Positions 27,433 through 43,243 of a DNA stretch of 64,000 nt are shown in pieces; within the stretch, counting starts at the first letter, position 1; every line of letters starts with the position of its first letter. A program made the position numbers and the translations under genes. Source of the stretch: Bacteroidales bacterium (GTDB taxonomy: Bacteria; Bacteroidota; Bacteroidia; Bacteroidales; GCA-2748055); NCBI GenBank assembly GCA_040768485.1, contig JAXGMU010000004.1, positions 17,879 to 81,878 on the forward strand. Reading direction: 5' to 3'. Under the pieces are notes generated by a model, which saw only the letters and a program-made list of their open reading frames with translations, had not been told where the DNA came from and searched no databases.

Positions 27433-27506
27433 GTCGGTGTGTCTGCAGGGGCCTGAGCTGGTGCGAAGCAGCAGGTTTAGCACCGAAGACACACCGACTT
27501 TTTTTT
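27433..27506. terminator. Bidirectional hairpin terminator between convergent genes
   Basis: Perfect 12-bp stem GTCGGTGTGTCT (27433-27444) / AGACACACCGAC (27487-27498), flanked by AAAAG on the left and TTTTTTTT on the right. The 42-nt loop contains a further GGTGC/GCACC pairing. Confidence 0.65.
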
Positions 27507-28518: not shown

Positions 28519-30191
28519 TTTCCTTCGTATTCAAACCATGAAAAAGATGCAACACCGCCTCCGGCATGGCCGTTGCCGGTGGCGTACATACCGGCGTAGG
28601 ATCCGTTGAACCCGCCTGCCAGCTCATCGGAAATGACAGACAGGCTCTGCACATCGCCGATCTGGCGGAGCGCAGCTTCAGAGGACCCGGCCATAAAGAC
28701 AATGCCCGTTCCTTTTGCCTCGGCCAACAGGACCACCTGGTCCTCTTCCCAGGGAACGCGTGCCAGCTCTTCACGATTGCCGTTCAGGGTCCTGATCAAA
28801 ACCAGCGCGTTCATTTCCCTGACCAGCTTGAAAAGATGGGTGCTTCTGCGGTAGATGATCAGTCCCGCCTGCTGGTGCTCACCTGACGGAGAAAAGTCCA
28901 TTTCGGTGGCAACATGCCAGGCATGGTGACAGATCCTGCGGGCGATCAGGGAGGGATTCTCGAACCGCTCCGCCATCTCGGACCTTACATCCATCTCCAG
29001 TGTCCCGTCCGCCAGCCGGTACCATTTTTCAAACGGGGTACGCAGGAAATTCCAGTGAAGGGACAGCTGCTCCCCGTTAAATTCATCCCTGGAAGGGGAC
29101 GGTTCAGCCGGGGTCCAGGGAAGATCGGGCCGTTCCTGCTCCATTGACAGTCTCCCCATGCCCGGATTGAATACGGGGGTCGGCATTCCGCCCTGGTCCT
29201 CGAATATGACCGGGGTCATGAAGGTTTCCCGGGCCAGCAGTGTGTATCCGTCCACCCTCCGCTTGCCCAGCATCACAGACCACCATTCACCGTACTGCGT
29301 TTCCACCAGATCGGCATGCCCCACGGCATAGAGCGGATATTCCCTTCCCAGGTGCCGGTGGGTGAGTACCGGGTTCACATGGTAGGGGATATACGGTCCC
29401 CACAGGCTGTCGCTGTGGTGCATGGTAACGCTGTGGTGGAAATCGGTGCCTCCCTCTGCCACCAGCAGCATGTATCTCCCGTTGATCTTATACAGGTGCG
29501 GTCCTTCTGCCCACACCGCATTGGATGCATGCCCGTGGGTCAGTTGCACCCGCCTGCCCACCAGTTTTTGCTGCGAAAGGTCCAGTTCCTGCATCCAGGC
29601 CCCCTGCTGGTCCGGCCATTCCTGTTTCCCTGTCAAATTCCCGTGCCCCACATAGTAACAGCGGCCGTCATCGTCCCAGAAAAGGGAGGGATCGATCCCG
29701 GGAGAATGAAGCCAGACCGGGTCCGACCAGGGCCCGGCGGGATCCTCCGCGGTAATGTAAAAGTTCCCGTTGCAGTCCACGCAGGTATTGATGATATAAA
29801 AGATCCCGTCATGGTACCGGATGGTCGGGGCGAAGACACCCCTTGAATCGCCCAGTCCTTCGGGAAGATCCACCTGGCCCGGACGCGCGATCCCGTATCC
29901 GATCAGCTCCCAGTTGACCAGGTCTTTGCTGTGGTGGACCGGAAGTCCGGGGAACCACTCAAAGGTGGAGTTCACCATATAGTAATCGTCCCCGGCCCTG
30001 CAGATGGACGGGTCGGGGAAGAATCCGGGCAGGACAGGGTTCCGGAAGGTGGACGGGCTTTCAATGGCCGGGGCGGAAGGGATCTCCTGGGCTTCGGCGG
30101 ATACGGCAGCCGCAAGTGCGACCCACCCGGTGAAGAACCACCGGTTCATCCTTTTTCCGGCCCGGTTCAGGTGTTTTCGATACGCTTTCAT
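28515..30191 (-). CDS. Glycoside hydrolase family 43 (beta-xylosidase/alpha-L-arabinofuranosidase-like) with a C-terminal beta-sandwich
   Basis: NPVLPGFFPDPSICRAGDDYYMVNSTFEWFPGLPVHHSKDLVNW, FAPTIRYHDGIFY and WAEGPHLYKINGRYMLLVAEGG. The start is set at MKAYRKH (30191); an alternative is MNRWFF at 30149. Confidence 0.85.
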   Translation of the reverse strand: MKAYRKHLNRAGKRMNRWFFTGWVALAAAVSAEAQEIPSAPAIESPSTFRNPVLPGFFPDPSICRAGDDYYMVNSTFEWFPGLPVHHSKDLVNWELIGYGIARPGQVDLPEGLGDSRGVFAPTIRYHDGIFYIINTCVDCNGNFYITAEDPAGPWSDPVWLHSPGIDPSLFWDDDGRCYYVGHGNLTGKQEWPDQQGAWMQELDLSQQKLVGRRVQLTHGHASNAVWAEGPHLYKINGRYMLLVAEGGTDFHHSVTMHHSDSLWGPYIPYHVNPVLTHRHLGREYPLYAVGHADLVETQYGEWWSVMLGKRRVDGYTLLARETFMTPVIFEDQGGMPTPVFNPGMGRLSMEQERPDLPWTPAEPSPSRDEFNGEQLSLHWNFLRTPFEKWYRLADGTLEMDVRSEMAERFENPSLIARRICHHAWHVATEMDFSPSGEHQQAGLIIYRRSTHLFKLVREMNALVLIRTLNGNREELARVPWEEDQVVLLAEAKGTGIVFMAGSSEAALRQIGDVQSLSVISDELAGGFNGSYAGMYATGNGHAGGGVASFSWFEYEGK

Positions 30192-30256
30192 GTCGTTGCT
30201 TTGAGATACATTTCCATCTGTCCAAAGTATGAAAAAACTGACGGAATCCCTTATTT

Positions 30257-33160
30257 TTGATGAAAACACTCCTTATGCCCATCAGCAAGCTGATCAGTGT
30301 ACCGCAGGGGATGGTCTCCCGTTTTCACGAACTTGAAAAGAAGGACAGGAAAGAATGGTTCTGCACCTCCGATCCGGAGGAAAAAAGGGCCGGATCGGGG
30401 GGAGGGACGGCCCACCTGCTGGCATCTGCTTACCGCTCCTTACGTTCGGGCGAAGGTTTCAGGAAATGGCTCGCCGCCGAAAAGCGGATGGTCATTCATT
30501 CTTCAGGGGAAAGCCGCCGGCTGCCGGCCTATGCTGCCACGGGGAAGTCACTGCTTCCCGTTCCGGTATTCCGGTGGTCCAAGGGACAGCACCTGGACCA
30601 GAAACTACTCGATTTACAGGTCCCCTATTATGAACGCATCCTGAAGAATGCGCCGGACAGATACCGGGTCCTGATCGCCAGCGGGGATGTGATGTTCATT
30701 TCATCGGACCGGTTCATGGACCTTCCCGAGGCGGATGTACTGGTGTTCGGTGTCTGGGTGGATGATCCGGTGGCCTCCCGGCACGGGGTGTTTTTCAGCC
30801 GCAGGGAAAAACAGGACACCCTCGCATTTGTGAAGCAGAAACCCTCCATAGAGGAATTGAGGAAGCTTTCCGGAGAATATTTCTACCTGATGGATTCGGG
30901 CATTGTGCTGCTGAATGAAACCACCACCATGCTCCTGATGAAAAGGTCGGGGTGGGATGAAAAGAAAGAAAATTTCCGGGACGGACTGCCGGATTACTAT
31001 GACCTGTACGGTGAAATGCTTGCTTCCTTCGGAACGGAACCGCAGGTCAGCGACCCGGAGTTGCAGGGGCTGCAGGTGAAATTGTACCCCCTGCACCAGG
31101 GGGAATTCTATCATTTCGGGAGCAACAGCGACCTGATCGATTCCACCCTGAAGCTCCAGAACCGGATAACCGACCAGCGCCTGAAACTGACCCGGGAACC
31201 GGACCACCACCCATCCATCTTCCAGCAGAATGCAGAGATCCGGATCAAATTCACCGAGCAAAACCACCATCTCTGGATCGAGAACTGCCATATCCCGGAA
31301 TCATGGAAACTGAACCACCACCATATCCTGACCGGGATCCCTGAGAATGACTGGGAGATTGAGCTCACGGCGGGGAACTGTGTGGATCTGGTCCCCCTGG
31401 GCAGGGACCGGTATGTGCTTCGGACCTATGGTTTTTCAGACAATTTTAGGGGGACCCCGGACAGAGGGGGCGCGTGGATGGAAGGACCGCTGACCGATTG
31501 GATGGAACAACGGAGGATCATTCCGGAGGAAGCTGGTATTTCACCGGGAGGATCCATGTTCGAGGCACCCCTGTTCCCGGTTCTTAAGAGGGAAGAAATC
31601 GGAAAGATGCTCCTTTTTATGGTGGGGAACGGGAGCGGCCATGAAGCGGCCTGGCAGGATCGGATGCGGGACCGGTGGATCCGGTGTGAGCGGTTGTCGG
31701 CGAGGGAACTGATTGCAAAAGCGGACATTCCGGCGCTGTACCGGCAAAGGCAGTCCCTGATGGTCCGCTCCCTCCCCCTGCTGGCCGCACATCACCGGAC
31801 CAGTATTTTTTACTACCTGGACCTGGAGAAGACCGCGGCCGATTACAGGGAAGCACACCTGGATCCCCCTGCGGCACTGGCACCCGGCGAACCGGTGATC
31901 AGGCGCATCAATGACAGCATGTTCCGTGCCAGGGTCGCCGGGACCAGGAAAATGGCCGAAAAGCATGAGCAACAGGCTTTCTCCATTTTGCGTGAGGCGA
32001 TGATCGACACCCTGAAACAGGCACCCGTCGCTCCCCACCGCAACCTGTTGGACGACCAGATCCTCTGGGGCAGGAGCCCGGTGAGGCTGGACCTGGCCGG
32101 GGGATGGACCGATACCCCGCCTTACTGCATCATGGAGGGGGGCAGGGTGGTGAACATGGCGGTGGAGCTGAACGGACAGCTGCCCTTGCAGGTCTATGCC
32201 CGTCCCCTTGAGGAACACAAGATCGTGCTCAGATCCATTGACCTGGGGATCAAGAAAGAAATCACAACTTTCGGGGAACTGGAAAAATATGACCGGCCGG
32301 GGGACGGATTTTCCATCCCCATGGCAGCGCTGGCGCTGGCAGGATTCAGCAACCGCTTCAGCGGGAAAACATTCCCTGACCTGGTCTCTCTCCTGAAGGA
32401 GTTCGGGTGCGGACTGGAGATGTCCCTGCTGGCCGCCGTGCCCAAGGGATCGGGACTGGGGACCAGCTCAAACCTGGCAGCCACGGTCATGGGAACCCTC
32501 AGCGAATTTTGCGGGCTTAACTGGGACAAACACGAGATCTCATACCGTACCCTGATCCTGGAACAGATGCTTACCACAGGCGGCGGCTGGCAGGACCAGT
32601 ACGGAGGGGTGTTCGAGGGGATCAAGCTGCTGGAGACCGCTCTCGGGATCCGCCAGTCGCCCCGCATCCGGTGGATCCCCGAGCAGGTTTTTTCCGGGGC
32701 GGAACGGGGGCAAATGGTAATGTTGTATTACACGGGTGTCACCCGTGTGGCCAGGGACATCCTGGGAGAGATCGTGAAGGGGATGTTTCTCAATTCGGCC
32801 CGTCACCTGGAGATCTTCAGCGAGATGAAACAGCACGCCGGTGAAACCTTTGACGCGCTTCTGGGCAATGACTATGAAGAGGTGGCCGGGAAGGTGGCCA
32901 TCAGCTGGGAGCTGAACCAGCGGCTGGACGAGGGGACCAATCCGCCGGTGATCAGGGAGATCATCAGGAGGGTGGATGATTACCTGCTGGGCTACAAGCT
33001 GCTGGGTGCCGGCGGGGGCGGATACCTGCTCATGTTTGCCCGCTCGCCCGATGCCGCGGTGAAGGTAAAAAACAACCTGGAGAATGACCCGCCCAACAAA
33101 CGGGCCCGGTTTGTTGATTTCGCCGTTTCACAGACGGGGTTCCAGGTATCCCGGTCCTGA
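30257..33160 (+). CDS. fkp: Bifunctional L-fucokinase / fucose-1-phosphate guanylyltransferase
   Basis: 967 aa. The N-terminus SRFHELEKKDRKEWFCTSDPEEKRAGSGGGTAHLL resembles Bacteroides Fkp as I remember it. The C-terminal GHMP-kinase motif is PKGSGLGTSSNLAA. Confidence 0.8.
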   Translation: MMKTLLMPISKLISVPQGMVSRFHELEKKDRKEWFCTSDPEEKRAGSGGGTAHLLASAYRSLRSGEGFRKWLAAEKRMVIHSSGESRRLPAYAATGKSLLPVPVFRWSKGQHLDQKLLDLQVPYYERILKNAPDRYRVLIASGDVMFISSDRFMDLPEADVLVFGVWVDDPVASRHGVFFSRREKQDTLAFVKQKPSIEELRKLSGEYFYLMDSGIVLLNETTTMLLMKRSGWDEKKENFRDGLPDYYDLYGEMLASFGTEPQVSDPELQGLQVKLYPLHQGEFYHFGSNSDLIDSTLKLQNRITDQRLKLTREPDHHPSIFQQNAEIRIKFTEQNHHLWIENCHIPESWKLNHHHILTGIPENDWEIELTAGNCVDLVPLGRDRYVLRTYGFSDNFRGTPDRGGAWMEGPLTDWMEQRRIIPEEAGISPGGSMFEAPLFPVLKREEIGKMLLFMVGNGSGHEAAWQDRMRDRWIRCERLSARELIAKADIPALYRQRQSLMVRSLPLLAAHHRTSIFYYLDLEKTAADYREAHLDPPAALAPGEPVIRRINDSMFRARVAGTRKMAEKHEQQAFSILREAMIDTLKQAPVAPHRNLLDDQILWGRSPVRLDLAGGWTDTPPYCIMEGGRVVNMAVELNGQLPLQVYARPLEEHKIVLRSIDLGIKKEITTFGELEKYDRPGDGFSIPMAALALAGFSNRFSGKTFPDLVSLLKEFGCGLEMSLLAAVPKGSGLGTSSNLAATVMGTLSEFCGLNWDKHEISYRTLILEQMLTTGGGWQDQYGGVFEGIKLLETALGIRQSPRIRWIPEQVFSGAERGQMVMLYYTGVTRVARDILGEIVKGMFLNSARHLEIFSEMKQHAGETFDALLGNDYEEVAGKVAISWELNQRLDEGTNPPVIREIIRRVDDYLLGYKLLGAGGGGYLLMFARSPDAAVKVKNNLENDPPNKRARFVDFAVSQTGFQVSRS

Positions 33161-33180: not shown

Positions 33181-33975
33181 TCATCTTGTAACCACGATCT
33201 TCTTGGACGGGGAACGCACATTGCCGGTTTCCACGTGGTACATGTATGTTCCGGGAGGAAGCTGACTTGCCGGCAGTACAAGCTGCTCCGTGGATGCTGT
33301 CACAGGACAGCTCAAAACCCTCCGGCCCCGGGCATCGAACAGCTCAAGCGATCCTGAATCACTACCCGGGGGCAACTGTACCGGGATATGAACCACCGAA
33401 CCGGCAGGGTTGGGGAATGGATTCCCGGTATTATAAGCGGAGTAGGGAATCTCTGATTTCGTGGCGGCCTCAGGAAGGGCATACACCTGGGTCTGCGTCC
33501 TGTATGGGATCACAGAGTAATCGTAAATATACACCAGAAATTTCCTGCCCTCATTTTCCGTATCGAGCAAACTGGAATATCCTGCTCCCGGGATGCTCAG
33601 CAGGACGTTCCCGTTCTCGTTGATGAGCCTGGACTCATACGTATAAAAGTAAGAATCTGTGGTGGGGACATACATGGAATAGGTGTAGAACAATTCCACC
33701 AGGTTGTCGCTGTTGAAGAGCTTTTCGGAAACAAACTGTACATTATACAGGTAATACCCTTCAGGGGCCGGCAGCGAAATGGTCTTGTACAGGCTGTGGT
33801 CCATCCGGTAGATACGGCATTCTTTATTGACCACGTCCATGGTGTAATACACCTCTCCAGTATTTTCCATCCGGCAGATGTTGGCGGAAACCGTGTAAAT
33901 GTGCTCAAGCGAGGGCTGTGCATGGAGCAACAATCCCGGGAGCCACAAGACGGCAATGATGATGCGGGTTTTCAT
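33181..33975 (-). CDS. Hypothetical secreted protein with a T9SS C-terminal sorting domain
   Basis: Start trimmed to MKTRIIIAVLWLPGLLLHAQ (cat at 33973-33975). The C-terminus is GNPFPNPAGSVVHIPV...GTYMYHVETG...KKIVVTR. Confidence 0.75.
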   Translation of the reverse strand: MKTRIIIAVLWLPGLLLHAQPSLEHIYTVSANICRMENTGEVYYTMDVVNKECRIYRMDHSLYKTISLPAPEGYYLYNVQFVSEKLFNSDNLVELFYTYSMYVPTTDSYFYTYESRLINENGNVLLSIPGAGYSSLLDTENEGRKFLVYIYDYSVIPYRTQTQVYALPEAATKSEIPYSAYNTGNPFPNPAGSVVHIPVQLPPGSDSGSLELFDARGRRVLSCPVTASTEQLVLPASQLPPGTYMYHVETGNVRSPSKKIVVTR

Positions 33976-34036: not shown

Positions 34037-34672
34037 TCAGGGCTGGTCCAGCAGGTCCAGTCCCTCCAGTGCAGACGAGCCGCCGGGGGTATGCAGCAGG
34101 GCTTTCTGGAACAGCACCTTTGCTTCCCTGTAATTGCCCAGTTTGAAATATGACCAGCCCAGCATGGTGAGGGCGTCATAATCAAAGGGATAGAGGTTGA
34201 CCACCTTTTCGAAGTATTTCTTCGCGGTCTCGAAATCCTCCCTGCCATAATAGATCAGCCCGATCCTGTGCATGGCGATGGAATTGTTGGGGCAGATTTC
34301 CAGGATCTTTGCATACTGATCCATCACCATGGTCCAGTTTCCCATGGCAGCCCCGGGGTACACGATCCCGAACCTGGGTTCAATGGCATAGGGCATGAGA
34401 TTGACCGCCCTGTTGTAATAGGCCACGGATTCGGTAAAATTACCTGCCTGGTAGCTCAGCCAGCCGAGGCGCAGGTTGATCTCGTATGATTTTTCATCAT
34501 ACACCTTCTTCAGGCTGTTCACCGCGGCAAGGACCTCCCCGGTGGCTTCCTGGATGTAGCTCTGCTGGAAGGCGTCCTTGATCTCCTTGAACTCCTGTCC
34601 CCTTACAGAAATGACAGCAGAAATAAGCAGGCCGGACCACAGGCCCCGCCTCAGAATTTTTAAAATTTCCAT
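34037..34672 (-). CDS. Periplasmic TPR-repeat protein
   Basis: Signal peptide-like N-terminus and repeated TPR-like 34-aa units (YNRAVNLMPY..., AKKYFEKVVNLYPFDYDAL..., AKVLFQKALLHTPG). The ATG lies 13 nt inside the upstream gene. Confidence 0.75.
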   Translation of the reverse strand: MEILKILRRGLWSGLLISAVISVRGQEFKEIKDAFQQSYIQEATGEVLAAVNSLKKVYDEKSYEINLRLGWLSYQAGNFTESVAYYNRAVNLMPYAIEPRFGIVYPGAAMGNWTMVMDQYAKILEICPNNSIAMHRIGLIYYGREDFETAKKYFEKVVNLYPFDYDALTMLGWSYFKLGNYREAKVLFQKALLHTPGGSSALEGLDLLDQP

Positions 34673-36015
34673 GATAATCCTCCGTAAATTGATATGGTGT
34701 GATAGGTGATTGCATTGCCCTGATCGACCAGGTTCGGATCAAGAGGAATGAACCTGCTCCGGTATGCTGCCCACCGGCCGCCCAGGTATACCATTGATCC
34801 ATTCGATGAAACGGGCACTGACACGGACAGACCGGCCTTTTTTCCTGGCTTTTCCCCGAAACTGTTAAAGATAATGGCTCCGTAATTTTCGGTATAGTTC
34901 TCCATCTCGCCCGATGAAGCATTCAGTTCAATCCATGCTTTTTCAGCGATGGAGAAGCCGAACAGGATCTCGGGGATGACGTTGAGCACTCCTTCCCCGG
35001 TGCCGGTCCTGTAAAGGGAATTGGCGAAACCGCCGGCATACAGGTTCAGGTTTCCCAGGGGGTACCAGGTGAGCCCGATCCTGCTCTGGACCTGCTCCAT
35101 GTCGTTCAGATCCGAGTAATATCCGCCAAGGTGAAGATCCACCGGACCGATCCGCTGTTTCAATGCCAGACCGGCCAGGAAATCAGTTTTTTCCTGGAAG
35201 ACAAGGATCATGTTGTTCCCTCCCTGGTATCCGGTCCCTGCATCTGCGAAAACCTGGTAGCGCAGGCGGACCACGTGGAATGCGGGGATCAATGTCAGTC
35301 CCGACAGGGTGGTCAGTCGGGGTGAGAGGTAATACTGATGCTGCCTGACCTGCTGGGCTGTCGTATAGTACCTGCTGATCCCGTCGAAATAATAATAGAG
35401 ATTCTTTTTCGACAGGAAGGTATATGCATGTTCCAGGGAGATCCCCGGGGCAATGGCGTTTGAAAGGGAGGCTGAAAGATTAGAGAATCCGGAGGTGACG
35501 TACTGGACACCGGGAACCGGTGCAGAAATGGATACATCGGGACTCTCCAGGATCTCCCTGTTCAGGTTATGGCTGATGAGGTATTCAACCCCGGACATGC
35601 CGAAAAAGGCTGGTTCGGCAGGGGGCATTTTCAGTGACAGATCGCCCCTGAACCGTTTTCTGAGAAGATCTGCCTGCTCCTTCTCACCGGCATAGATCCT
35701 GCAATAATAGAGATATTCAAGGGCCGCCGGGTCCTGGTGGTTCCACTCGAGCGCCCTGGTGAAATGGGTGGCCGCCTTCCGGTAATTCCTGTTGCTGTAA
35801 TAAGCGATCCCCAGCCGCATCCGCAGATAATAATAATCGATCTCCTCCCTGAGCGCTTCCTTCCCCGTATGGATGAGGCTGTCCCACTTTCCTTCAATAT
35901 AATACCGGTAGGTTTCCCTGTCGAACCTGCTGAATGAATCCTGTTCCTGTGCAATGCCCTGCCGGGATATGCCCAGAAGCAGCATGAAAAGGGTGATGAC
36001 GGTCAGTCTGCACAT
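34660..36015 (-). CDS. Outer-membrane protein with an N-terminal TPR module and a C-terminal beta-barrel
   Basis: Signal peptide MCRLTVITLFMLLLGISRQGIAQ. TPR-like N-terminal region of about 130 aa. The Tyr/Gly-rich alternating strand pattern ends in YGGLSWKF (terminal Phe). Confidence 0.7.
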   Translation of the reverse strand: MCRLTVITLFMLLLGISRQGIAQEQDSFSRFDRETYRYYIEGKWDSLIHTGKEALREEIDYYYLRMRLGIAYYSNRNYRKAATHFTRALEWNHQDPAALEYLYYCRIYAGEKEQADLLRKRFRGDLSLKMPPAEPAFFGMSGVEYLISHNLNREILESPDVSISAPVPGVQYVTSGFSNLSASLSNAIAPGISLEHAYTFLSKKNLYYYFDGISRYYTTAQQVRQHQYYLSPRLTTLSGLTLIPAFHVVRLRYQVFADAGTGYQGGNNMILVFQEKTDFLAGLALKQRIGPVDLHLGGYYSDLNDMEQVQSRIGLTWYPLGNLNLYAGGFANSLYRTGTGEGVLNVIPEILFGFSIAEKAWIELNASSGEMENYTENYGAIIFNSFGEKPGKKAGLSVSVPVSSNGSMVYLGGRWAAYRSRFIPLDPNLVDQGNAITYHTISIYGGLSWKF

Positions 36016-38195
36016 GTTGCTTCCAGGTGAAGTTTGCCGGAATCCACTTCAAAGGTCCGGATCCCTTTTTCGTTGATGGTCATGGAAAAATCAAGCCTGC
36101 GCAGCAATTTTCCCGAAATCAGGTTGCGGGCGGCGGACCGCAGCCGGATCTCCGAAGGGGACATCTCGTTATCGATCCATTCATACCGGCATTCGAATTC
36201 GGATCGCAGGAACTTCCAGAAAGGGGCCACAAAATCCTGCAGTGCCAGCAGCGGGTGCCGGAAGATCAAATTGAGCGGGTACCGGTCCGAGATGACCAGG
36301 TCCTGGTAGAATCCCTGCTGAACCTGAAATGCCGCCAGGAAAAAATAATAAAGCAGCGTATGTTTATTCCCGCTGTAATGGGTGAAATAGATCAGGTCCC
36401 CGTCGTTGATGAAATAAGCCACGGCACCCGATTGTTCACACCGGATATAGGGATTGTTGTAGGCATCCGTGTTCACCTCCCAGGCAGCTTCTTTCATGTC
36501 CGCGCTCCCTTTCACGGTAAAACGGAACCTTTTGCCCGGGATCAGGTGGAAAGCCTGGTGAAGGAGGCCGTTCCTTTCAATGTTTGAGACAAGGTCATCT
36601 TTCCGGGGATAAGCATAGGATTCCAGGCTGAACGGCTGGCGGGAATGAAGGATATAGTGGCTGACGGGGAATTTCAGCGTCACCGATCCGATATAAGGGG
36701 TGGCCTGCACCTGGTAATGAAGGTGTGGATAGGGAGAGCGTCCTGAATTCCCGCATCTTCCGATCTCGTCCCCTTCTTTTACCCTGTCTCCCTCACGGAC
36801 CCTGATGGTCCCCTCTTTCAGGTGGCTCAGGGAGGTGTACAGATGTTCGTCGTGCCGGATGACCACCGTGTTGCCCCAGTTATCCTTCAGATTGACCTCC
36901 CCCACGGGATTGTCAGGAACATGGTCCGCGACAAAAGCGATGGTGCCGTCCGCCGGCGCCACGACCATTTTGTCGTAACAGTGATAGTCGGTGAGCGCAT
37001 CTCCGCTTCCCATGTACTGTTTGCCCTCGGTACCGGTAATGACGAAATCCCACGCATGCCGGAACTCATCCTTGTGAGTATATTCCCCGTCATGGGCCTG
37101 GGATACCGTCCAGGCACCCAGGAACGGAAGCCTGATCCTCACCCTCTCGCGGTGCCGGAAGCGCACCACATCGTTGTGGAATGCATACAGGTTCTTTTCG
37201 GGGGAGTTATGCTGGATCAGCACTTCGGCCAGTTTGAGAGATGGTTCAAGCCTGAATTTCAGGGCATAGAGGAACAAAAGCACCACCAGGTTGAAGGGCA
37301 GTGAATACACCGGCAGGCTGAATACGGCAAGAACCCGGGACAGGCTGATGGTGATCATGGCCACGATGGGGATCAGCAGGATCACCCAAAGGAAGGAACG
37401 TTTGGAGGGGATGATGAAAAATCCCCCCACCGCGATGGATGTCAGGATGTAATTGAATCCGATATAGCTGTAGCTCACGTCGGAAATATGTGCCCCGATC
37501 AGTTCATAAAACAGGAACGCCGTATAAAAACCGATCAGCGAAAGTGAGAAGGCGATCCTTGAGAACAGCAGCAGTCCCGTCGCCAGCAGGATGCCCGAAA
37601 GCAGGTTGAACTGGAACAGGATGGCCGCCAGGGAGAGAAAGTAGATCCTCAGGGACCTGGCCAGATCCACGTCGTTCCACCATTCATACACCCGGACAAG
37701 CACATCTCCCCCGATGGTATACAGGTCATTGAAGGTGTAGATCCCCCGCTCGCTGATCCCCAGGGCCGTGAATTCCCTGGTGGCCAGGGTCATGATCCAG
37801 ATGGCCAGAAGAAAGGGGACGGAGAGGAACGGCAGGGCATACTTGCCGATCACTCCCTGGAGTGAAACGGCAATCAGCAGGGTCAGGATGGCCGCCATGA
37901 TGACCACCACGATGAGCAGCAGGTCGGGTTTGAAATAGATCCCAAGTCCCAGTCCCACCAGCAGGCTGTTGAAGCCGAACACCCCCCTGGCAATGTTCCG
38001 CCTGTCAAGTCCCAGCAGAAATCCTGCCAGGTTGGTAACGATCACCGAAAGCAGTCCCATCAGCCCCGCATAGATGTCGAAGAAGGTGACCAGCATGAGG
38101 ACAAAGGAGAACAGCAGCTGGTCCGAGAAGAAGACCTGCCCGTAGCTGTTGGGAACGGACCTGATAAAGAGCTTTATGTCGCCGGAGCGTTTCAA
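36003..38195 (-). CDS. Fusion protein: urea-transporter-family membrane domain + M23 metallopeptidase + uncharacterised C-terminal domain
   Basis: The N-terminal 330 aa or so are polytopic, with UT-like NSYGQVFFSDQ and GVFGFNSLLVGLGLG. The M23 core is VVAPADGTIAFV, WGNTVVIRHDEHLYTSLSHLK and GNSGRSPYPHLHYQV. The last 220 aa or so are unassigned. Confidence 0.75.
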   Translation of the reverse strand: MKRSGDIKLFIRSVPNSYGQVFFSDQLLFSFVLMLVTFFDIYAGLMGLLSVIVTNLAGFLLGLDRRNIARGVFGFNSLLVGLGLGIYFKPDLLLIVVVIMAAILTLLIAVSLQGVIGKYALPFLSVPFLLAIWIMTLATREFTALGISERGIYTFNDLYTIGGDVLVRVYEWWNDVDLARSLRIYFLSLAAILFQFNLLSGILLATGLLLFSRIAFSLSLIGFYTAFLFYELIGAHISDVSYSYIGFNYILTSIAVGGFFIIPSKRSFLWVILLIPIVAMITISLSRVLAVFSLPVYSLPFNLVVLLFLYALKFRLEPSLKLAEVLIQHNSPEKNLYAFHNDVVRFRHRERVRIRLPFLGAWTVSQAHDGEYTHKDEFRHAWDFVITGTEGKQYMGSGDALTDYHCYDKMVVAPADGTIAFVADHVPDNPVGEVNLKDNWGNTVVIRHDEHLYTSLSHLKEGTIRVREGDRVKEGDEIGRCGNSGRSPYPHLHYQVQATPYIGSVTLKFPVSHYILHSRQPFSLESYAYPRKDDLVSNIERNGLLHQAFHLIPGKRFRFTVKGSADMKEAAWEVNTDAYNNPYIRCEQSGAVAYFINDGDLIYFTHYSGNKHTLLYYFFLAAFQVQQGFYQDLVISDRYPLNLIFRHPLLALQDFVAPFWKFLRSEFECRYEWIDNEMSPSEIRLRSAARNLISGKLLRRLDFSMTINEKGIRTFEVDSGKLHLEATCAD

Positions 38196-38241: not shown

Positions 38242-39594
38242 TCATTTCAGATGGTCCGGGATCGCCTCCTGCTGCCTGACCAGTTCCATGTGTTCTTTTT
38301 TCCTGATCACATGGACCTTCCCGTCCAGGTCGATGAGCACCACATTGGGCCGGAGGGTGATGAACTGCATCCACTGGGTCATGTTGTAGGCACCGATGCG
38401 TTTGATCACGAAATGATCCCCTTTCTTGAGCAGGGGGAAGGCGATGGCATCCCGGACCACATCGATGTTCATGCAGAGGGGGCCGAAAATGGTGGTCTCT
38501 TCCAGGTGCTCAGATACCGGTGCAGCCGGATACACCTCATGATCGTACCAGAAGGAGGTGAACAACAGGTTCACTCCCACATCCACGATGGTAGCCCGGT
38601 TCCCCGAGGAAAGCCGCTTGTTGGCGATGACGGTTCCGAGCAGGTAACCCGCGTCATCGATCAGCGCCCTTCCGCTTTCAAGGATCAGCGTGGGCAGGTT
38701 CCGCGGATTGAGTTGCGAGTTGAGGATGGCCGATGAGATGGCCTCTGCGTATTCCTCGAATGAAGGGGCCGTATCGGAGCCCGGGTAATAGGCACCCTTA
38801 AGGGTGTTCTGGGAGGCAAATCCTCCCCCGAGATCGATATACCTGATGCTGGTACCATACTTCTTCTCGATCCCGTATGCCAGATCGGCCAGCTTGCCGG
38901 CAGCCACCTTGTAGGCACTTGCCGCGAGCATGTAAGTGCCTATATGCGCATGCAATCCCACCAGTTCCAGTTTTTCGTTCATCATGATCCGGTTGATGGC
39001 GTCCCACGCGTCCCCGTTTTCGTAGTTGAACCCGAAGCGGTCCCACATGGGATAAATCCCCGTATCCATGTTCACCCGGATGGCCACCTTGGGACGTTTT
39101 TCAACGTTTTCGGATATGGCGATGATGGAATACAATTCATCGAAGTGGTCGATGTGGATCAGGGAGTCATTCACAATGGCTTTTCTCAGCTCCTCGTCTG
39201 TCTTGTCCGGCCCGTTGAAAATGATCTGGCTCCCTTTCACGCCGTTCAGGAGGGCTTTGTCATATTCAAAGCCCGAAACCACCTCCGCCCATGAACCTTC
39301 CTGGTGGAAGATGCGGCACACCGCATCCAGGTAATTGGTCTTGTAGGACCAGGCGAACTGCACCCTGGGATACCGGGTCGTAAAAGCATGCCTGGCTTTC
39401 CTGAACTTTTCCCGGATAGTTCTTTCGGATATAACGTACAGGGGCGACCCGTGTTCGTCCAGCAGTTCTGAAACAGAAACGTCATCAATATGGGTGAGGG
39501 GTTCGGTTGCCACCTTCATCCCGAACTTGCTGGGCATGCCCGCCTGCAGTCTTTTGATAAAAGGTCTCTCGAAAGGCTTTTTTTCCATGATCAT
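38242..39594 (-). CDS. Group IV PLP-dependent decarboxylase (Orn/DAP/Arg decarboxylase fold)
   Basis: GSPLYVISERTIREKFRKARHAF..FAWSYKTNY (PLP-Lys context), IDLGGGF, and the C-terminal beta-barrel segment GPLCMNIDV. The start is trimmed to MIMEKKPF (cat at 39592-39594), 5 nt after the ATP-grasp stop. Confidence 0.8.
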   Translation of the reverse strand: MIMEKKPFERPFIKRLQAGMPSKFGMKVATEPLTHIDDVSVSELLDEHGSPLYVISERTIREKFRKARHAFTTRYPRVQFAWSYKTNYLDAVCRIFHQEGSWAEVVSGFEYDKALLNGVKGSQIIFNGPDKTDEELRKAIVNDSLIHIDHFDELYSIIAISENVEKRPKVAIRVNMDTGIYPMWDRFGFNYENGDAWDAINRIMMNEKLELVGLHAHIGTYMLAASAYKVAAGKLADLAYGIEKKYGTSIRYIDLGGGFASQNTLKGAYYPGSDTAPSFEEYAEAISSAILNSQLNPRNLPTLILESGRALIDDAGYLLGTVIANKRLSSGNRATIVDVGVNLLFTSFWYDHEVYPAAPVSEHLEETTIFGPLCMNIDVVRDAIAFPLLKKGDHFVIKRIGAYNMTQWMQFITLRPNVVLIDLDGKVHVIRKKEHMELVRQQEAIPDHLK

Positions 39595-39599
39595 TTGTA

Positions 39600-40643
39600 T
39601 TACAGTTCGCCCTGTGTGGACAATTTTTCGTATTCTTTCAGATCGGTGATCAGGTCGTAGGAGTAACGGATGAACATCTTTCCCACCTCGTATGTACTGA
39701 ATGGTTTCACTTCCAAGCCCAGGGCCAGTTTGACCATGGCTTCGGGAAGGTTCTGTCCCGCGCCCACCGCCAGGTAGACCCAGGCGGGGATCCTCGGATT
39801 GATCTCGATGATGTACAGCTCGTTCCGGTGAGACTTGATCAGTTCCAGTTCCATCCCTCCCCGCCACTTTGTCTTTTCCATGATCTCCCTGGTCAGATCC
39901 AGCATCTTCCTGTCGTCCAGGGTGATCCCCGCCCAGGCCTTGCCTTTGTCGGTAATATACTGTTTCCGCATGGGAACGGCACCGATGGTATTTCCCCGGC
40001 CGTCACCCAGGGCCACCACATTCACCTCGGTCCCCTTGATGAACTCCTGGATGATCACCGGAACACCCCATTTGGCAGTGATCTTGTTAAAGTGCATCCG
40101 CACCTGCTCTTCGTTGTAGGCCAGGTAGGCATCATAGAATTTACCCTTCACCATCAGGGGGTATTCAAAGTCATCTTTCAGTTTCCTGATCTCGTCCGGT
40201 CCCGTGATCGATTTGCTGAAGGGGACATGCAGGTCATATTTTTTGCCGAATTCGGGAAGATGTTCCTTGTGCCGTTCCTCGAACTGTTCCAGGGTGGGGA
40301 TGAATGTCCTGATCCCCGCATCTTCCAGCACTTTTTCCGACCGCATGAAGGCATACAGCTCTGCATCAAAGTTGGGCACCACCACATCGATGGGATCCCT
40401 GCGGTGGATCTCCAGGATCCTGTTTATCAGGACACCCGATCCTTCCGACGGATAGGGTACCTGGTAGGTCTTGTCCACCACCCCGCGCATATAAATGGCC
40501 GGCTCCAGGTTTTCATAGGCAAGCCCGATGATCCGCGGGTCGAAGTATTCGGATTCCCGGATGCCACGGATGACCGGTACCCCGGGTCCCGGATTGTCCG
40601 TATTGTTCAATCCGGAGAGGGCGACGGTGATCTTAGTTTTCAT
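39600..40643 (-). CDS. ATP-grasp family ligase
   Basis: Pre-ATP-grasp N-terminal domain, YPLMVKGKFYDAY, VIIQEFIKGTEVNVVAL and ELYIIEINPRIPAWVYLA. The start is set at MKTKITVALSG (cat at 40641-40643); upstream alternatives are 40649 and 40664. Confidence 0.8.
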   Translation of the reverse strand: MKTKITVALSGLNNTDNPGPGVPVIRGIRESEYFDPRIIGLAYENLEPAIYMRGVVDKTYQVPYPSEGSGVLINRILEIHRRDPIDVVVPNFDAELYAFMRSEKVLEDAGIRTFIPTLEQFEERHKEHLPEFGKKYDLHVPFSKSITGPDEIRKLKDDFEYPLMVKGKFYDAYLAYNEEQVRMHFNKITAKWGVPVIIQEFIKGTEVNVVALGDGRGNTIGAVPMRKQYITDKGKAWAGITLDDRKMLDLTREIMEKTKWRGGMELELIKSHRNELYIIEINPRIPAWVYLAVGAGQNLPEAMVKLALGLEVKPFSTYEVGKMFIRYSYDLITDLKEYEKLSTQGEL

Positions 40644-40887
40644 CCCCATCGTCCAGAAGTTCAAACTGCCTGAGCATGCTCAGGAAGTCAAAGTAATACT
40701 TCTCAAAGCTGGCCTCGTCCACGTCATATTCCGCGGTCATGAACGCTTTGATCTCTTCCAGTGATTTGCCATTGGCCAGATGGTTCAGGATCTCCCGGCC
40801 TACCTGGTTCATTGAGTAGGAATCGCCGGTTGTGGGATTGAAGACAAATCCGGAATCACTGACGGCAATATTCTTTTTGATCCGCAT
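40633..40887 (-). CDS. PqqD-family (RRE-like) small protein with an acidic C-terminal tail
   Basis: 84 aa. SGFVFNPTTGDSYSMNQVGREILNHLANGKSLEEIKAFM matches the PqqD-family pattern as I remember it. The protein ends LLDDGDEN. Confidence 0.7.
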   Translation of the reverse strand: MRIKKNIAVSDSGFVFNPTTGDSYSMNQVGREILNHLANGKSLEEIKAFMTAEYDVDEASFEKYYFDFLSMLRQFELLDDGDEN

Positions 40888-41063
40888 GATAGATGGAATG
40901 GTTCGTATTGGTATGGTAAAAATCAGGAATCTTCATCTGTTGGCTGTTACACTATTCCGGGAAAATTTTATAATTTTCAACCTCCGGCATCAGATTTGAA
41001 TGCAACATAAATGCGTTCTTAATACGACCGGGGAGATGATTTTGTTTCCCCGCCTTCGGATTT

Positions 41064-41639
41064 ATGATTACCACTACGATCCATATCAAGAACATGGTCT
41101 CCCGGTGCTGTATTGTACTGATCAAAGAGAAACTGGAAAAGGCCGGGATACTTGTGGATGAAATCAGCCTGGGAAAAGCGACCATCCGATTTGACGAAAC
41201 ACGCGTCAGCCGCGATGACATCAGGCAGGTGCTCCTGGAACTGGGGACGGACCTCATCGAGGGCAGGGAACAGCAGCTTGTGGAGAAGATAAAGCTGGCG
41301 GTGATCGAGCTGATCCATTACATGAACAATGTGGATTCCATCGTACGAAAGTCGGATTACCTGGTGGAAAAACTGGGGCTCAGTTATTCCTACCTGTCCC
41401 GGATCTTCTCTTCCCATGAACACATCACCCTGGAACGGTATATCATCCTCAACAAGATCGAGCGGATCAAGGAACTGATCGACCAGGAAGAGTTCACCCT
41501 GAGCGAAATTGCCTTTATGATGGACTACAGCAGTGTCCAGTACCTTTCCAGCCAGTTCAGGAACATCACCGGGATGACGGTGAGCGAATACAGGGCCGGC
41601 GACCGTTCCTCCAAAAGGCCCATCGATCTGCTTACCTGA
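41064..41639 (+). CDS. AraC-family transcriptional regulator with an HMA-like N-terminal domain
   Basis: The N-terminus TTTIHIKNMVSRCCIVLIKEKLEKAGI has a ferredoxin-like HMA pattern with vicinal Cys. The C-terminal AraC HTH is LSEIAFMMDYSSVQYLSSQFRNITGMTVSEYR. Confidence 0.8.
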   Translation: MITTTIHIKNMVSRCCIVLIKEKLEKAGILVDEISLGKATIRFDETRVSRDDIRQVLLELGTDLIEGREQQLVEKIKLAVIELIHYMNNVDSIVRKSDYLVEKLGLSYSYLSRIFSSHEHITLERYIILNKIERIKELIDQEEFTLSEIAFMMDYSSVQYLSSQFRNITGMTVSEYRAGDRSSKRPIDLLT

Positions 41640-41783
41640 TTTTATAACATTTTTGCTGAATTTTATGAGCTTCCTCCGGAGGAATTTCCAAAACTTTGTA
41701 TTTACAAATATAGATATATGGATACATAAGCAGGCCAGGTGCGGATCGTATCCATCGATGTAAAACAAAAAAACGATCATATC

Positions 41784-42434
41784 ATGAAGACAATGATGGC
41801 AAAGACCGCAGGAGTGTTATTGATTTCAGCCGGACTCTTTCTTCCGTTCACGCAGTGCACGGAAGGGGCTGCCATGGATGAAGGAAACGGCATTGCCGGT
41901 GATCCTGTTCTGAAAGGTTTTATTTCACAGCCATTGACCGAAGCTGAAAAAGAAGGGATATTATTCCTCAGGGAGGAGGAAAAACTGGCCCGTGATGTAT
42001 ATCTTTATCTCTATGACAGGTTCCCGCTCAGGCCTTTTCTGAACATTTCAAAGAGCGAACAGGTCCATATGGATGCCATGAAGTATTTGATTGACACATA
42101 TGGTCTGGAAGATCCGGTGGGGGACAATCCGGAGGGTGTATTTAAAAATGAAACCCTTCAGCAACTGTACGATGAGCTCATCCAAATGGGCAGTGAAGGC
42201 AGGGAGGAGGCGCTGAAGGCCGGAGCATTTATCGAGGAGGTGGATATTATCGACCTTCAGACGGAGTTGAATGAAAATGTGGAAAATACAGATGTCAGAA
42301 GGGTCTATACAAACCTCTGCAATGCCTCGGAGAATCATTTAAGGGTATTTGTCCGTGTACTGGGCAGATACGGCGTGGAATATGAACCGGTAAAGCTTGA
42401 AAGGGAGGAATTTCTGCGAATCATGAGTGAATAA
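41784..42434 (+). CDS. DUF2202 (ferritin-like) lipoprotein
   Basis: Start trimmed to MKTMMAKTAGVLLISAGLFLPFTQC (lipobox-like). EAEKEGILFLREEEKLARDVYLYLYDRF and SEQVHMDAMKYLIDTYG match the DUF2202 pattern. Confidence 0.7.
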   Translation: MKTMMAKTAGVLLISAGLFLPFTQCTEGAAMDEGNGIAGDPVLKGFISQPLTEAEKEGILFLREEEKLARDVYLYLYDRFPLRPFLNISKSEQVHMDAMKYLIDTYGLEDPVGDNPEGVFKNETLQQLYDELIQMGSEGREEALKAGAFIEEVDIIDLQTELNENVENTDVRRVYTNLCNASENHLRVFVRVLGRYGVEYEPVKLEREEFLRIMSE

Positions 42435-42507: not shown

Positions 42508-43146
42508 TCAATCCAGCTGTTCCAGCCTAAATTCCTCCAGCTCATCCGAGTAATCCCGGACCGCTTTGGAGGCCCTTCTTCCCGTAAAAAAGCCGATCAC
42601 CAGAAGCACGACCAGGACCAGGGCAACGATCTTTGCGGCGGAATCCTTTCCTTTAAGTGCATGTACGAGCGCCATGTAGAGCAGGTAGATCCCGTACAGT
42701 CCCACAATGACCCAGACAATACTTCCCAGGGTCAGGCTGATCCCGTAGAAGAAGGAAAGGGCCGACTGGACCGGATAGAGCACCGCAAGGGATGCAGTCA
42801 CCCTCAGGTTGGCCTCAAAATCTGTGTTCCCGCCGCAGATGGCAGAGATCACCAGCATGATCACGGCACCCACGAATAGCCCCACAATGGAGGCAATGAT
42901 CGCCCATACCAGGGCCATGATGCCCACGGCACCTCCCATGATCCCGGTTCCGCCCATGGCCGACAATCCCAGTACGCTCCAGAGGAATGCGAACAATCCT
43001 GCGATGACCCCGTAGATGGCCACCTTGATCACAGGTTCAGCGAATCCTCCCTTCAGGGAGAGGGAAGAAAAATAGGATTTGGGATTCATGAGGGTATCCA
43101 CGGAATCCCTGATGATCTTGTTCAGATCGATTTTTTCGTTGCTCAT
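42508..43146 (-). CDS. Yip1-domain membrane protein
   Basis: Start trimmed to MSNEKIDLNKII (cat at 43144-43146). The N-terminal cytoplasmic segment NPKSYFSSL is followed by five hydrophobic helices. Confidence 0.6.
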   Translation of the reverse strand: MSNEKIDLNKIIRDSVDTLMNPKSYFSSLSLKGGFAEPVIKVAIYGVIAGLFAFLWSVLGLSAMGGTGIMGGAVGIMALVWAIIASIVGLFVGAVIMLVISAICGGNTDFEANLRVTASLAVLYPVQSALSFFYGISLTLGSIVWVIVGLYGIYLLYMALVHALKGKDSAAKIVALVLVVLLVIGFFTGRRASKAVRDYSDELEEFRLEQLD

Positions 43147-43243
43147 AATGGATTCGATAAGTGTTTTTTTTGGTCCTGAAAAGGTACGAATCCGTGAGCA
43201 AATGCGCAAGAAAATTCCTGCCGGATCACCAGGCCTTCTTTTT

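Follow-up and report, generated by a model that had tools for sequence, protein, structure and literature searches.

A widespread UT-M23 fusion protein encoded in a conserved ligase and decarboxylase cassette

Introduction

The closest described relatives of the protein studied here are the urea transporters (UTs), such as dvUT, Yut, UT-A and UT-B, and the M23/LytM proteins, such as LytM, lysostaphin, ShyA, MepM, DipM and EnvC. M23 peptidases are mostly extracytoplasmic. We analysed a 64,000-nucleotide stretch of DNA (the window) from a Bacteroidales bacterium (GenBank assembly GCA_040768485.1, contig JAXGMU010000004.1, positions 17,879 to 81,878), in which a single open reading frame (ORF) joins a UT domain, an M23 domain and a third domain, X. 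We refer to its product as UT-M23-X. The gene lies in a cassette with genes for a PqqD-like protein, an ATP-grasp ligase, a pyridoxal phosphate (PLP)-dependent decarboxylase and two secreted tetratricopeptide repeat (TPR) proteins. The explanation that fits best, which as a whole we hold only tentatively, is that UT-M23-X is a peptidase-coupled membrane conduit dedicated to the ligase/decarboxylase pathway and the inner-membrane part of an envelope-spanning cassette. It would then be neither a housekeeping urea transporter nor a cell-wall hydrolase.

UT-M23-X shares with the UTs the complete fold, the two-repeat topology, the pore motifs, the pore Phe and the glutamines at Pa and Pb. Unlike them, it has a 400-aa M23-X extension that is predicted to be cytoplasmic, and Ser in place of both central Thr residues. 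It also scores below the Yut equivalog cut-off and, in the loci examined, is encoded in a ligase/decarboxylase cassette and never beside urease genes. With the M23/LytM proteins it has in common the fold, the HxH motif, the catalytic His and the zinc Asp and His. Unlike those proteins, it carries a T-H-x8-D motif and an insertion of ~18 residues, is predicted to be cytoplasmic, has biosynthetic partners, and lacks a signal peptide and a cell-wall-binding domain.

The proposed arrangement resembles that of peptidase-containing ATP-binding cassette transporters (PCATs; ComA, LagD, SunT), in that a cytoplasmic peptidase would sit covalently on a membrane conduit beside biosynthetic genes, the coupling being inferred. 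It differs in using M23 and not C39, and a UT channel and not an ABC transporter, with no ATPase, double-glycine leader or precursor gene. PCATs are defined by C39 plus an ABC ATPase; here only UT and M23 domains were detected, and the resemblance is functional only. The pairing of a ligase with an alanine-racemase (AR)-fold decarboxylase recalls rhizoferrin (FslA/FigC), staphyloferrin B (SbnH), microcin C (MccE) and butirosin (BtrI/BtrJ/BtrK) biosynthesis. BtrJ is also an ATP-grasp enzyme and works with a small carrier protein. Unlike in those pairs, the cassette ligase is an ATP-grasp enzyme like carbamoyl-phosphate synthetase (CPS) and not an NRPS-independent siderophore (NIS) synthetase, and the small protein is PqqD-like and not an acyl carrier protein.

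The secreted partners resemble PgaA, BcsC, PelB, AlgK/AlgE and Slam/type XI systems in their signal peptide, N-terminal TPR, barrel-like end and second TPR protein. They differ from PgaA, BcsC and Slam in that there is no glycosyltransferase synthase and no DUF560 match, and PgaA and BcsC are far larger than the 451-aa TPR protein. The cassette lacks the defining features of clusters for ribosomally synthesized peptides with post-translational modifications (RiPPs), of Slam/type XI secretion, of synthase-dependent polysaccharide export and of NIS siderophore clusters. By analogy, the cassette, made of unprecedented parts, would be closest in function to a biosynthetic cluster that has its own peptidase-coupled exporter.

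Results

UT-M23-X is a real and widespread fusion

The fusion gene and its parts are as follows.

36003-38195, minus strand: UT-M23-X fusion protein, 730 aa, TTG start
37260..38165, minus strand: UT (urea-transporter fold) membrane domain, residues 11-312 (Pfam UT, dvUT alignment, Foldseek)
36675..37259, minus strand: basic linker with a conserved SPEKNLY motif, then M23 domain (residues ~313-507)
36003..36674, minus strand: family-specific beta-rich domain X (residues ~508-730) and stop codon

An earlier sequence-only reading of the window had given the extent of this ORF exactly, leaving the strand unstated. The peptides it quoted are all present in the translation (SYGQVFFSDQ, GVFGFNSLLVGLGLG, VVAPADGTIAFV, GNSGRSPYPHLHYQV, RHAWDF and PFSLESYAYPRKDDLV...EATCAD). 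Its three-part architecture was borne out by Pfam, with UT at residues 11-312, Peptidase_M23 at 408-497 and residues ~508-730 unmatched. The protein thus consists of a UT domain, a linker, an M23 domain and a beta-rich C-terminal domain of ~220 aa. Homologues have a Met start at the position that aligns with the start of the window protein.

A similarity search over 5.8 billion proteins yielded upwards of 120 clusters of ~730 aa each (63-95% identity), all with both Pfam domains and all with the single-ORF architecture (700-770 aa). Relatives were encoded in 523 species genomes of GTDB, which was scanned as one genome per species. We fetched 80 loci from these hits as the near-relative set, scored neighbour presence by tblastn of the window neighbours, and observed the same single ORF in 80/80. 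When 50%-identity representatives were searched exhaustively with HMMER, 728 clusters reached E ≤ 1e-30. Among the best 150 of these 728, which were examined for length, 123 were at least 650 aa long and matched in one stretch through all three parts, down to ~27-33% identity. For residue conservation we used an alignment of 63 diverse members, 27-47% identical to the window protein.

We rejected the reading that an assembly, frameshift or gene-calling artefact fused two separate genes, and consider it virtually impossible. The architecture recurs across the clusters, the fetched loci and the diverse representatives, which come from independent sources, and we found no evidence in support of an artefact. 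The sequence-only reading had allowed for a local artefact; the survey of UT and M23 across genomes showed a conserved single ORF in a conserved context.

Most members came from Bacteroidota metagenome-assembled genomes (MAGs); others were found in an assembly of Persicimonas (Myxococcota) and in a Neomarinimicrobiota MAG. Sediment/gut-type Bacteroidota carry the cassette widely, and it reaches other phyla. Database names, where given, were "urea transporter", "urea transporter/M23" or "urea transporter/MepM/NlpD". The UT and M23 combination has been catalogued, with M23 C-terminal to bacterial UT domains, without functional analysis (PMC12998343, Biol Direct 2026). We found no characterised UT-M23 example in the searchable literature, and no publication connecting UT, M23, PqqD, ATP-grasp and decarboxylase. 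The earlier statement that no characterised example is known therefore holds, but the architecture itself had already been annotated and catalogued. UT-M23-X is a real, widespread and old fusion, catalogued but uncharacterised.

The fusion gene belongs to a conserved cassette

The other genes of the cassette are as follows.

40633..40887, minus strand: PqqD-like small protein, 84 aa, first cassette gene, acidic C-terminal tail (Pfam PqqD)
39600..40643, minus strand: ATP-grasp ligase, ~347 aa, carbamoyl-phosphate-synthetase-like branch (Pfam ATPgrasp_Ter, ATP-grasp_3)
38242..39591, minus strand: PLP-dependent alanine-racemase-fold decarboxylase, ~449 aa (Pfam Orn_Arg_deC_N, Orn_DAP_Arg_deC)
34660..36015, minus strand: secreted 451-aa protein with signal peptide, TPR and a 320-aa putative outer-membrane beta-barrel
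34037..34672, minus strand: periplasmic TPR protein, 211 aa, signal peptide, last conserved cassette gene (Pfam TPR, strong)

The order in the window is PqqD-like, ATP-grasp ligase, decarboxylase, UT-M23-X, 451-aa TPR protein and 211-aa TPR protein, all on the minus strand, with junctions that overlap or leave gaps of 8-46 nt. Among loci of the 80-locus set with enough flank, the PqqD-like gene was present on the same strand in 59/59, the ATP-grasp gene in 64 of ~65 and the decarboxylase gene in 77. The ~450-aa TPR protein was encoded on the same strand in 74 loci and the ~210-aa TPR protein in 67. Overall, 59-77 of the 80 near loci had the cassette genes on one strand and translationally coupled. 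We inspected six distant loci singly (L081, L083, L084, L085, L089 and L090; 27-40% identity). The core of PqqD, ATP-grasp, decarboxylase and UT-M23-X was kept in 6/6, with the gene order permuted in L081 and L089. The PqqD-like gene was found in L081, L083-L085, L089 and L090. Most of the six also kept the shorter TPR gene (~205 aa), which was found in L081, L083-L085, L088 and L090. The linkage survives rearrangement, which suggests a functional unit with selection on co-localisation. Even if the mechanism proposed below is wrong, the strict four-gene linkage defines a compact clonable unit of ~5-7 kb for product discovery.

The sequence-only reading had placed the fusion in a ligase/decarboxylase operon. 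The shared strand and tight junctions agree with this, but the PqqD-like gene and the two secreted TPR genes had been missed. The context is an envelope-spanning cassette rather than a two-enzyme operon. Its ATP- and PLP-dependent components are cytoplasmic, and it has further components in the inner membrane, the periplasm and probably the outer membrane.

Urease genes were never found beside the fusion gene in the loci examined, and a domain search detected no urease, amidase or ureohydrolase in the cassette. The cassette also contained no glycosyltransferase (window and distant loci L081 and L083-L085) and no siderophore receptor or major facilitator superfamily (MFS) exporter. No riboswitch or other RNA, including those for urea and guanidine ligands, was detected in the window or the leader region. 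Promoter- and terminator-like sites were no more numerous than in shuffled sequence; a terminator-like hairpin lies at 34046-34025, though such sites are not above shuffle counts. None of the six cassette proteins had a PADLOC defence match, and we rejected an anti-phage defence reading.

These results bear on a reading in which the UT domain moves a small amide or urea-like compound, a substrate or by-product of the ATP-grasp ligase and the decarboxylase, into or out of the cell, with M23-X as a cytoplasmic gate, sensor or hydrolase for it, so that the system would serve uptake, venting or sensing in salvage or homeostasis and not export. UTs are bidirectional for urea and small amides (PMC11589576), the ATP-grasp ligase is nearest to CPS/biotin-carboxylase-type enzymes, which handle bicarbonate and carbamate, and an AraC-type regulator is linked to the cassette. 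We nevertheless consider this reading quite unlikely. Ligases that consume ATP, like PqqD-like chaperones, typically belong to biosynthesis and not to catabolism, and a periplasmic TPR protein with a TPR-barrel protein is typical of export machines. The lack of urea-degrading, amidase or ureohydrolase genes in the cassette, and of a riboswitch for urea, guanidine or related ligands, also argues against it.

The M23 domain keeps its catalytic residues and is joined to a family-specific domain

The M23 core recognised by the sequence-only reading is real. Pfam Peptidase_M23 (PF01551) matched residues 408-497 above the gathering score (E 3.3e-17, 62.9 bits; cut-off 28.7), and Foldseek returned the M23 fold (DipM LytM, ShyA and Csd at E ~1e-7; probability 1.00, including LytM and lysostaphin). 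The predicted local distance difference test score (pLDDT) of the model was 82-94 over the M23 core. NCBIfam models for MepM, ShyA and Pgp3-type endopeptidases matched partially, all in the C-terminal half of the M23 domain.

We observed that H374, D383, H458, H491 and H493 were invariant in the 63 diverse members. The first motif reads T-H374-x8-D383-F and departs from the canonical HxxxD; the H-x8-D spacing was fixed in 63/63 diverse members and 123/123 full-length representatives. It had earlier been read as "HAWD", one residue short of HxxxD. We rejected this assignment, as H380 is His in only 22/63 members while T-H374-x8-D383 is invariant. The HxH motif (H491-L-H493) and the upstream catalytic His (H458) are canonical and align with ShyA (HLHY), LytM and DipM, and the GNSGRS loop is present. 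From these alignments, the putative zinc ligands are H374, D383 and H493, and the putative catalytic residues H458 and H491. Between D383 and the conserved PVxAPADG strand there is an insertion of ~18 residues, because of which the Pfam alignment starts only at residue 408. As all five catalytic positions are invariant, the M23 domain is most likely an active zinc hydrolase, probably a peptidase, and not a degenerate LytM factor.

The C-terminal ~220 aa had been described as matching nothing recognisable, and this held for sequence comparison. Residues ~508-730 had no Pfam match even at E ≤ 1, and a sequence-profile search found no relative of domain X in the PDB. The AlphaFold2 (AF2) model of domain X alone was mainly beta (pLDDT 77.7, predicted template modelling score (pTM) 0.75). 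The best Foldseek matches in the PDB were LolA, RseB, Rv2717c and YmcC-like open barrels (E ~2e-3, TM ~0.3), a weak similarity, and none reached E ≤ 1e-3. A homologue search with domain X alone returned only fragments of the same family, and X was seen solely attached to this M23 domain. On the model, domain X would be a family-specific beta domain, possibly one that cups a ligand.

M23 and domain X are predicted to face the cytoplasm

To place the M23 domain relative to the membrane, as the sequence-only reading had proposed, we examined charges, hydropathy and natural fusions. Beyond residue 315 the protein lacks hydrophobic segments, the highest Kyte-Doolittle mean over 19 residues being 0.96. 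Loop charges averaged over the 63 sequences follow exactly the pattern that the N-in/C-in topology of solved UTs predicts, K/R-rich loops taking turns with K/R-poor ones. The linker after the UT domain has 6.8 K/R versus 3.4 D/E (net +3.4), and the long central loop has a net charge of −1.6.

Locus L083 (8001-11918) encodes a natural fusion of UT-M23-X with its downstream TPR/barrel-like neighbour (protein P0321, 1305 aa). A signal-peptide-like segment, RAGLLALALTLLPAALAAQ, lies at the junction between domain X and the TPR/barrel part, and the only sensible arrangement is then one with X in the cytoplasm. Of the 12 sequences in the 90% cluster of this protein, which stem from several assemblies of a high-GC organism, 11 are full length (1305 aa). 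The fusion also implies an internal signal-anchor or cleavage, plus a physical link between the two proteins.

A UT-less M23-X protein, P0251 (427 aa; L086 6001-7898, and L087), starts at the post-UT linker (QHYSPEKNLY) and has neither a signal peptide nor a transmembrane (TM) segment; a TPR protein with a signal peptide follows. No UT domain, ATP-grasp, decarboxylase or PqqD was found near P0251 in L086 and L087, where M23-X may be a remnant left by decay or else a reduced variant. Based on the charge pattern, the lack of a further TM segment, the internal signal peptide in L083 and the UT-less homologue without a signal peptide, we predict with high confidence a cytoplasmic location for M23 and domain X, matching the N-in/C-in arrangement of solved UTs. 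The predicted location differs from the extracytoplasmic, peptidoglycan-side one expected of the M23 family.

This topology bears on the alternative that UT-tethered M23-X is a periplasmic peptidoglycan endopeptidase or amidase activator, working with the TPR and outer-membrane proteins in the manner of EnvC, NlpD or DipM. In its favour, the M23 domain is most similar, in sequence and in fold, to peptidoglycan endopeptidases and LytM factors. Domain X weakly resembles in fold the periplasmic proteins LolA and RseB, and the partners have signal peptides. We consider a cell-wall role very unlikely all the same. Three lines of evidence place M23-X in the cytoplasm by prediction, and the enzymes encoded as its obligate neighbours depend on ATP and PLP and are cytoplasmic. 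The non-canonical H-x8-D motif also argues against it, as does the confinement of Pfam, NCBIfam and phmmer-versus-PDB matches to the C-terminal part of the M23 domain.

The UT fold is retained while the urea-recognition relay varies

The N-terminal domain belongs to the UT family by profile search, so that one refuting outcome named by the sequence-only reading did not arise. Pfam UT (PF03253) matched residues 11-312 over profile positions 1-291 of 292 (E 5.9e-61, 206.6 bits; cut-off 25). Desulfovibrio dvUT aligned end to end with the UT part (phmmer E 6.7e-23), and Foldseek matched dvUT and UT-B. F75 of the window protein aligns with dvUT F80, and both LPxxTxPF pore motifs are present (LPFLS125VPF and LPVYS298LPF). 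The UT fold, with F75/F247, N76/N248 and both LPxxSxPF motifs, was kept through the 123 full-length clusters. The score against the Yut equivalog of NCBIfam (TIGR03441) was 122.5 bits, below the cut-off of 274.6.

In UTs, urea is recognised by a Q(Pa)-T(5a)-T(5b)-Q(Pb) relay with aromatics at 3a and 3b, as described by cryo-EM in 2024 (PMC11589576). The corresponding positions in the window protein are Q20-S125-S298-Q195, with Ser at both Thr positions and all four polar, and with F75 and F247 as the aromatics. Among the 63 diverse members, Q-T-T-Q occurred in 2 and Q-S-S-Q, the largest group, in 15. Q20 and Q195 were each Gln in 43/63, and position 5b was S, A, T or I. From these alignments, the UT fold is strictly retained and the urea-specific chemistry appears not to be, and the loss of the relay suggests that pore selectivity has changed or relaxed.

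For this family, "urea transporter" may be the wrong database name. Several thousand family proteins carry "urea transporter" or "MepM/NlpD" as public labels, and both are probably misleading, because the Yut test failed, the canonical relay is mostly lost and the peptidase is on the wrong side of the membrane by prediction.

The variable pore is also the starting point for a different account, in which the UT domain is a trimeric anchor or scaffold for a cytoplasmic M23 amidase, itself a further biosynthetic or deprotecting enzyme of the ligase/decarboxylase pathway, and export, if any, takes place elsewhere, with the TPR and barrel proteins acting separately. Besides the substitutions at the Gln and Thr positions, this account draws on the highest conservation being in M23 and not in the pore, on the UT-less M23-X of L086 and L087, and on the poor match between a narrow UT pore and a dedicated outer-membrane partner. 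Yet the full UT fold and the pore motifs are kept in all 123 clusters, whereas a plain anchor needs no ten conserved helices, and the relay positions of the window protein are all polar (Q-S-S-Q). We regard the anchor account as unlikely.

The enzymatic partners resemble those of biosynthetic pathways

The ATP-grasp family profile matched the CPS large chain in the PDB (E 1.8e-15) and 2PN1, a single-domain CPS-like protein (E 2.4e-11); a phmmer search of the ligase sequence against the PDB gave no match. An E280-x-N282-x-R284 motif was invariant. ATP-grasp homologues were 65-86% identical where the fusion protein was 53-76% identical. A profile search for relatives outside the cassette returned, among the matches listed, only cassette members, at least 73% identical. 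The ligase is not close to graspetide/microviridin ligases, and the cassette is not in the graspetide survey.

The listed decarboxylase ORF (38242-39867, 541 aa, GTG start) is over-extended, running 268 nt into the ATP-grasp gene. As its homologues have 448-500 aa, the real start is probably the ATG at 39591, giving 449 aa. The protein keeps the fold along with the PLP-binding Lys (SYKTN), Cys loop (GPLCMNID) and ESGR motif. In the PDB ranking, N-citrylornithine decarboxylase FigC/FslC (7KH2) came out best at E 6.2e-60, diaminopimelate (DAP) decarboxylases at E ≤ 1.7e-38 and BtrK at E 1.6e-25. The protein scored under the NCBIfam cut-offs for FslC (239.3 versus 500) and LysA (220.4 versus 297.9). 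FigC, SbnH, AcsE, MccE and BtrK decarboxylate amino acids that are pre-conjugated to citrate, a peptide-nucleotide or a carrier protein; DAP and D-ornithine decarboxylases are the exceptions in that clade (PMC7857480).

The PqqD-like protein scored 38.7 bits against Pfam PqqD (PF05402; cut-off 23.4) and 32.1 against NCBIfam PqqD_rel_X, just under the cut-off of 35. Its tail is D/E-rich, with a variable final residue. In 59 loci, no conserved small ORF that could encode a precursor peptide was found within 500 nt upstream of the PqqD-like gene. The small ORFs that are conserved there are only antisense shadows of the AraC gene, and we rejected a precursor peptide next to the PqqD-like gene. The cassette junctions are too tight for an additional gene.

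A special case of the conduit reading is that the PqqD-like protein serves leader recognition, or as a carrier like LysW or BtrI, and that M23 is the leader or carrier peptidase, comparable to C39. In its RiPP version, the ATP-grasp ligase and the decarboxylase would modify a ribosomal peptide encoded elsewhere. The PqqD domain in every cassette, the MccE and BtrK precedents for peptide- or carrier-bound amino acids, and the acidic C-terminal tail of the PqqD-like protein are consistent with this; a LysW-like carrier role is speculative. Against it stand the lack of a conserved adjacent small ORF other than AraC antisense shadows, the varying terminal residue of the tail, a UT pore far too narrow for a peptide, and an ATP-grasp ligase that is not of the graspetide/microviridin type. 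We give this special case, in either version, a low probability.

Two secreted TPR proteins complete the cassette

The start of the 451-aa gene overlaps the stop of the fusion gene by 13 nt. TPR matches in the 451-aa protein were confined to residues ~35-120, and N-termini resembling signal peptides were found across homologues of both TPR proteins. The 320-aa C-terminal region is rich in Gly, Ser and Tyr and free of Cys, and contains 38 windows of strand-like period-2 hydrophobic alternation compared to 17.6 ± 7.8 in shuffles. The protein ends in ...YGGLSWKF, and the C-terminal Phe was present in 58/68 homologues. A Phe-terminated end of the ...YGGxSWKF type is the pattern of the beta-signal of the beta-barrel assembly machinery (BAM). 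The barrel region had no Pfam match at E ≤ 10, and so no DUF560/Slam match, and no PDB match. Pfam searches over 23 homologues of the 451-aa protein found TPR only, with faint TPR_Slam in some. These sequence features suggest that the 451-aa protein is a probable outer-membrane barrel with a periplasmic TPR arm.

A peptidase-coupled conduit could link biosynthesis to export

In the tentatively preferred conduit reading, the ATP-grasp ligase would first join a carboxylate to an amino-acid side chain by an amide bond. The PqqD-like protein might hold a peptide or carrier during ligation and decarboxylation. The decarboxylase would then strip the alpha-carboxylate of the tethered amino acid to leave an amide-linked amine, as FigC, SbnH, MccE and BtrK do on their substrates. 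M23, below the cytoplasmic mouth of a trimeric UT channel, would hydrolyse one amide bond for release, deprotection or maturation. The product, or a small amide fragment, could exit through the UT-type pore, which has Ser in place of the central Thr pair. Completing the route across the outer membrane would fall to the TPR-barrel protein together with the periplasmic TPR protein. The sequence-only reading had suggested a combined processing and translocation module. A predicted cytoplasmic M23 that keeps all its catalytic residues, biosynthetic linkage and secreted partners all fit this idea, which is nonetheless still an inference.

Several observations weigh against the conduit reading. UT pores fit only small planar amides and the TPR and barrel partner suggests a larger cargo, so that these clues conflict. 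The pore Gln is replaced by a hydrophobic residue in about one third of the diverse members, in which the UT domain may be mainly an anchor, and a pair of UT-less M23-X and TPR protein exists in L086 and L087. The barrel fold of the 451-aa protein is only probable, and this protein is absent from L084 and L090. Neither the RiPP nor the carrier version is directly supported, as there is no precursor gene and the end of the PqqD tail varies. The full-length AF2 model is unusable for the UT part (pLDDT < 50) and does not show how M23 is placed with respect to the pore.

The boldest form of the conduit reading, which we consider rather doubtful, is that the UT fold was recruited into envelope-spanning secretion: the ligase and decarboxylase would make an amide-amine, M23 would cut it at the pore mouth, and the product would exit to the TPR adaptor and barrel. 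If true, UT-M23-X would be the first peptidase-gated channel exporter on a UT fold, with the first defined cytoplasmic role of an M23 peptidase. If the cassette makes and exports a small amide or amine, it would represent a new biosynthetic logic, in which ATP-grasp ligation and decarboxylation of the conjugate are followed by cleavage by M23. It would also put the UT fold to a new use and provide a case of export through a peptidase-coupled channel. The system would surprise specialists on UT channels and M23 peptidases.

Flanking genes

Two genes border the cassette.

41064..41639, plus strand: AraC-family regulator, divergent, candidate cassette regulator (Pfam HTH_18, HTH_AraC)
33181..33975, minus strand: protein with a type IX secretion system (T9SS) C-terminal sorting domain, directly downstream (Por_Secre_tail, E 8.8e-09)

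An antisense shadow ORF of AraC was found upstream of the cassette in 31 loci, and an AraC gene also flanks the cassette in L085; the AraC gene may be a cassette member. The N-terminal ~70 aa of the regulator (MITTTIHIKNMVSRCCIV...) had no family match. The 253-aa ORF at 41019-41780 (minus) is only an antisense shadow of the AraC gene. The T9SS-tailed gene follows the cassette in 33-36 near-relative loci and is absent from the distant loci. Its product is secreted and has a type-A sorting domain and an N-terminal domain of ~180 aa without a family match.

About 5 kb upstream, 43244-45974 (minus) encodes a sigma-54-dependent response regulator, similar to the PEP-CTERM regulator PrsR (TIGR02915, 391 bits, under the cut-off of 502), together with a histidine kinase. 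This two-component pair was found in only 4-7 related loci and is therefore probably outside the cassette. Between the two-component genes and the cassette lie genes for a DUF2202 ferritin/rubrerythrin-like protein with a signal-like N-terminus (41739-42434, plus) and a Yip1-domain membrane protein (42508-43398, minus). The DUF2202 gene was present in 20 related loci at variable positions and on either strand. On the downstream side, 27505-33160 is an unrelated sugar-metabolism block with an NAD-dependent epimerase, a GH43 beta-xylosidase-like enzyme and an FKP-like protein (plus strand, 967 aa) that combines fucose pyrophosphorylase and GHMP kinase.

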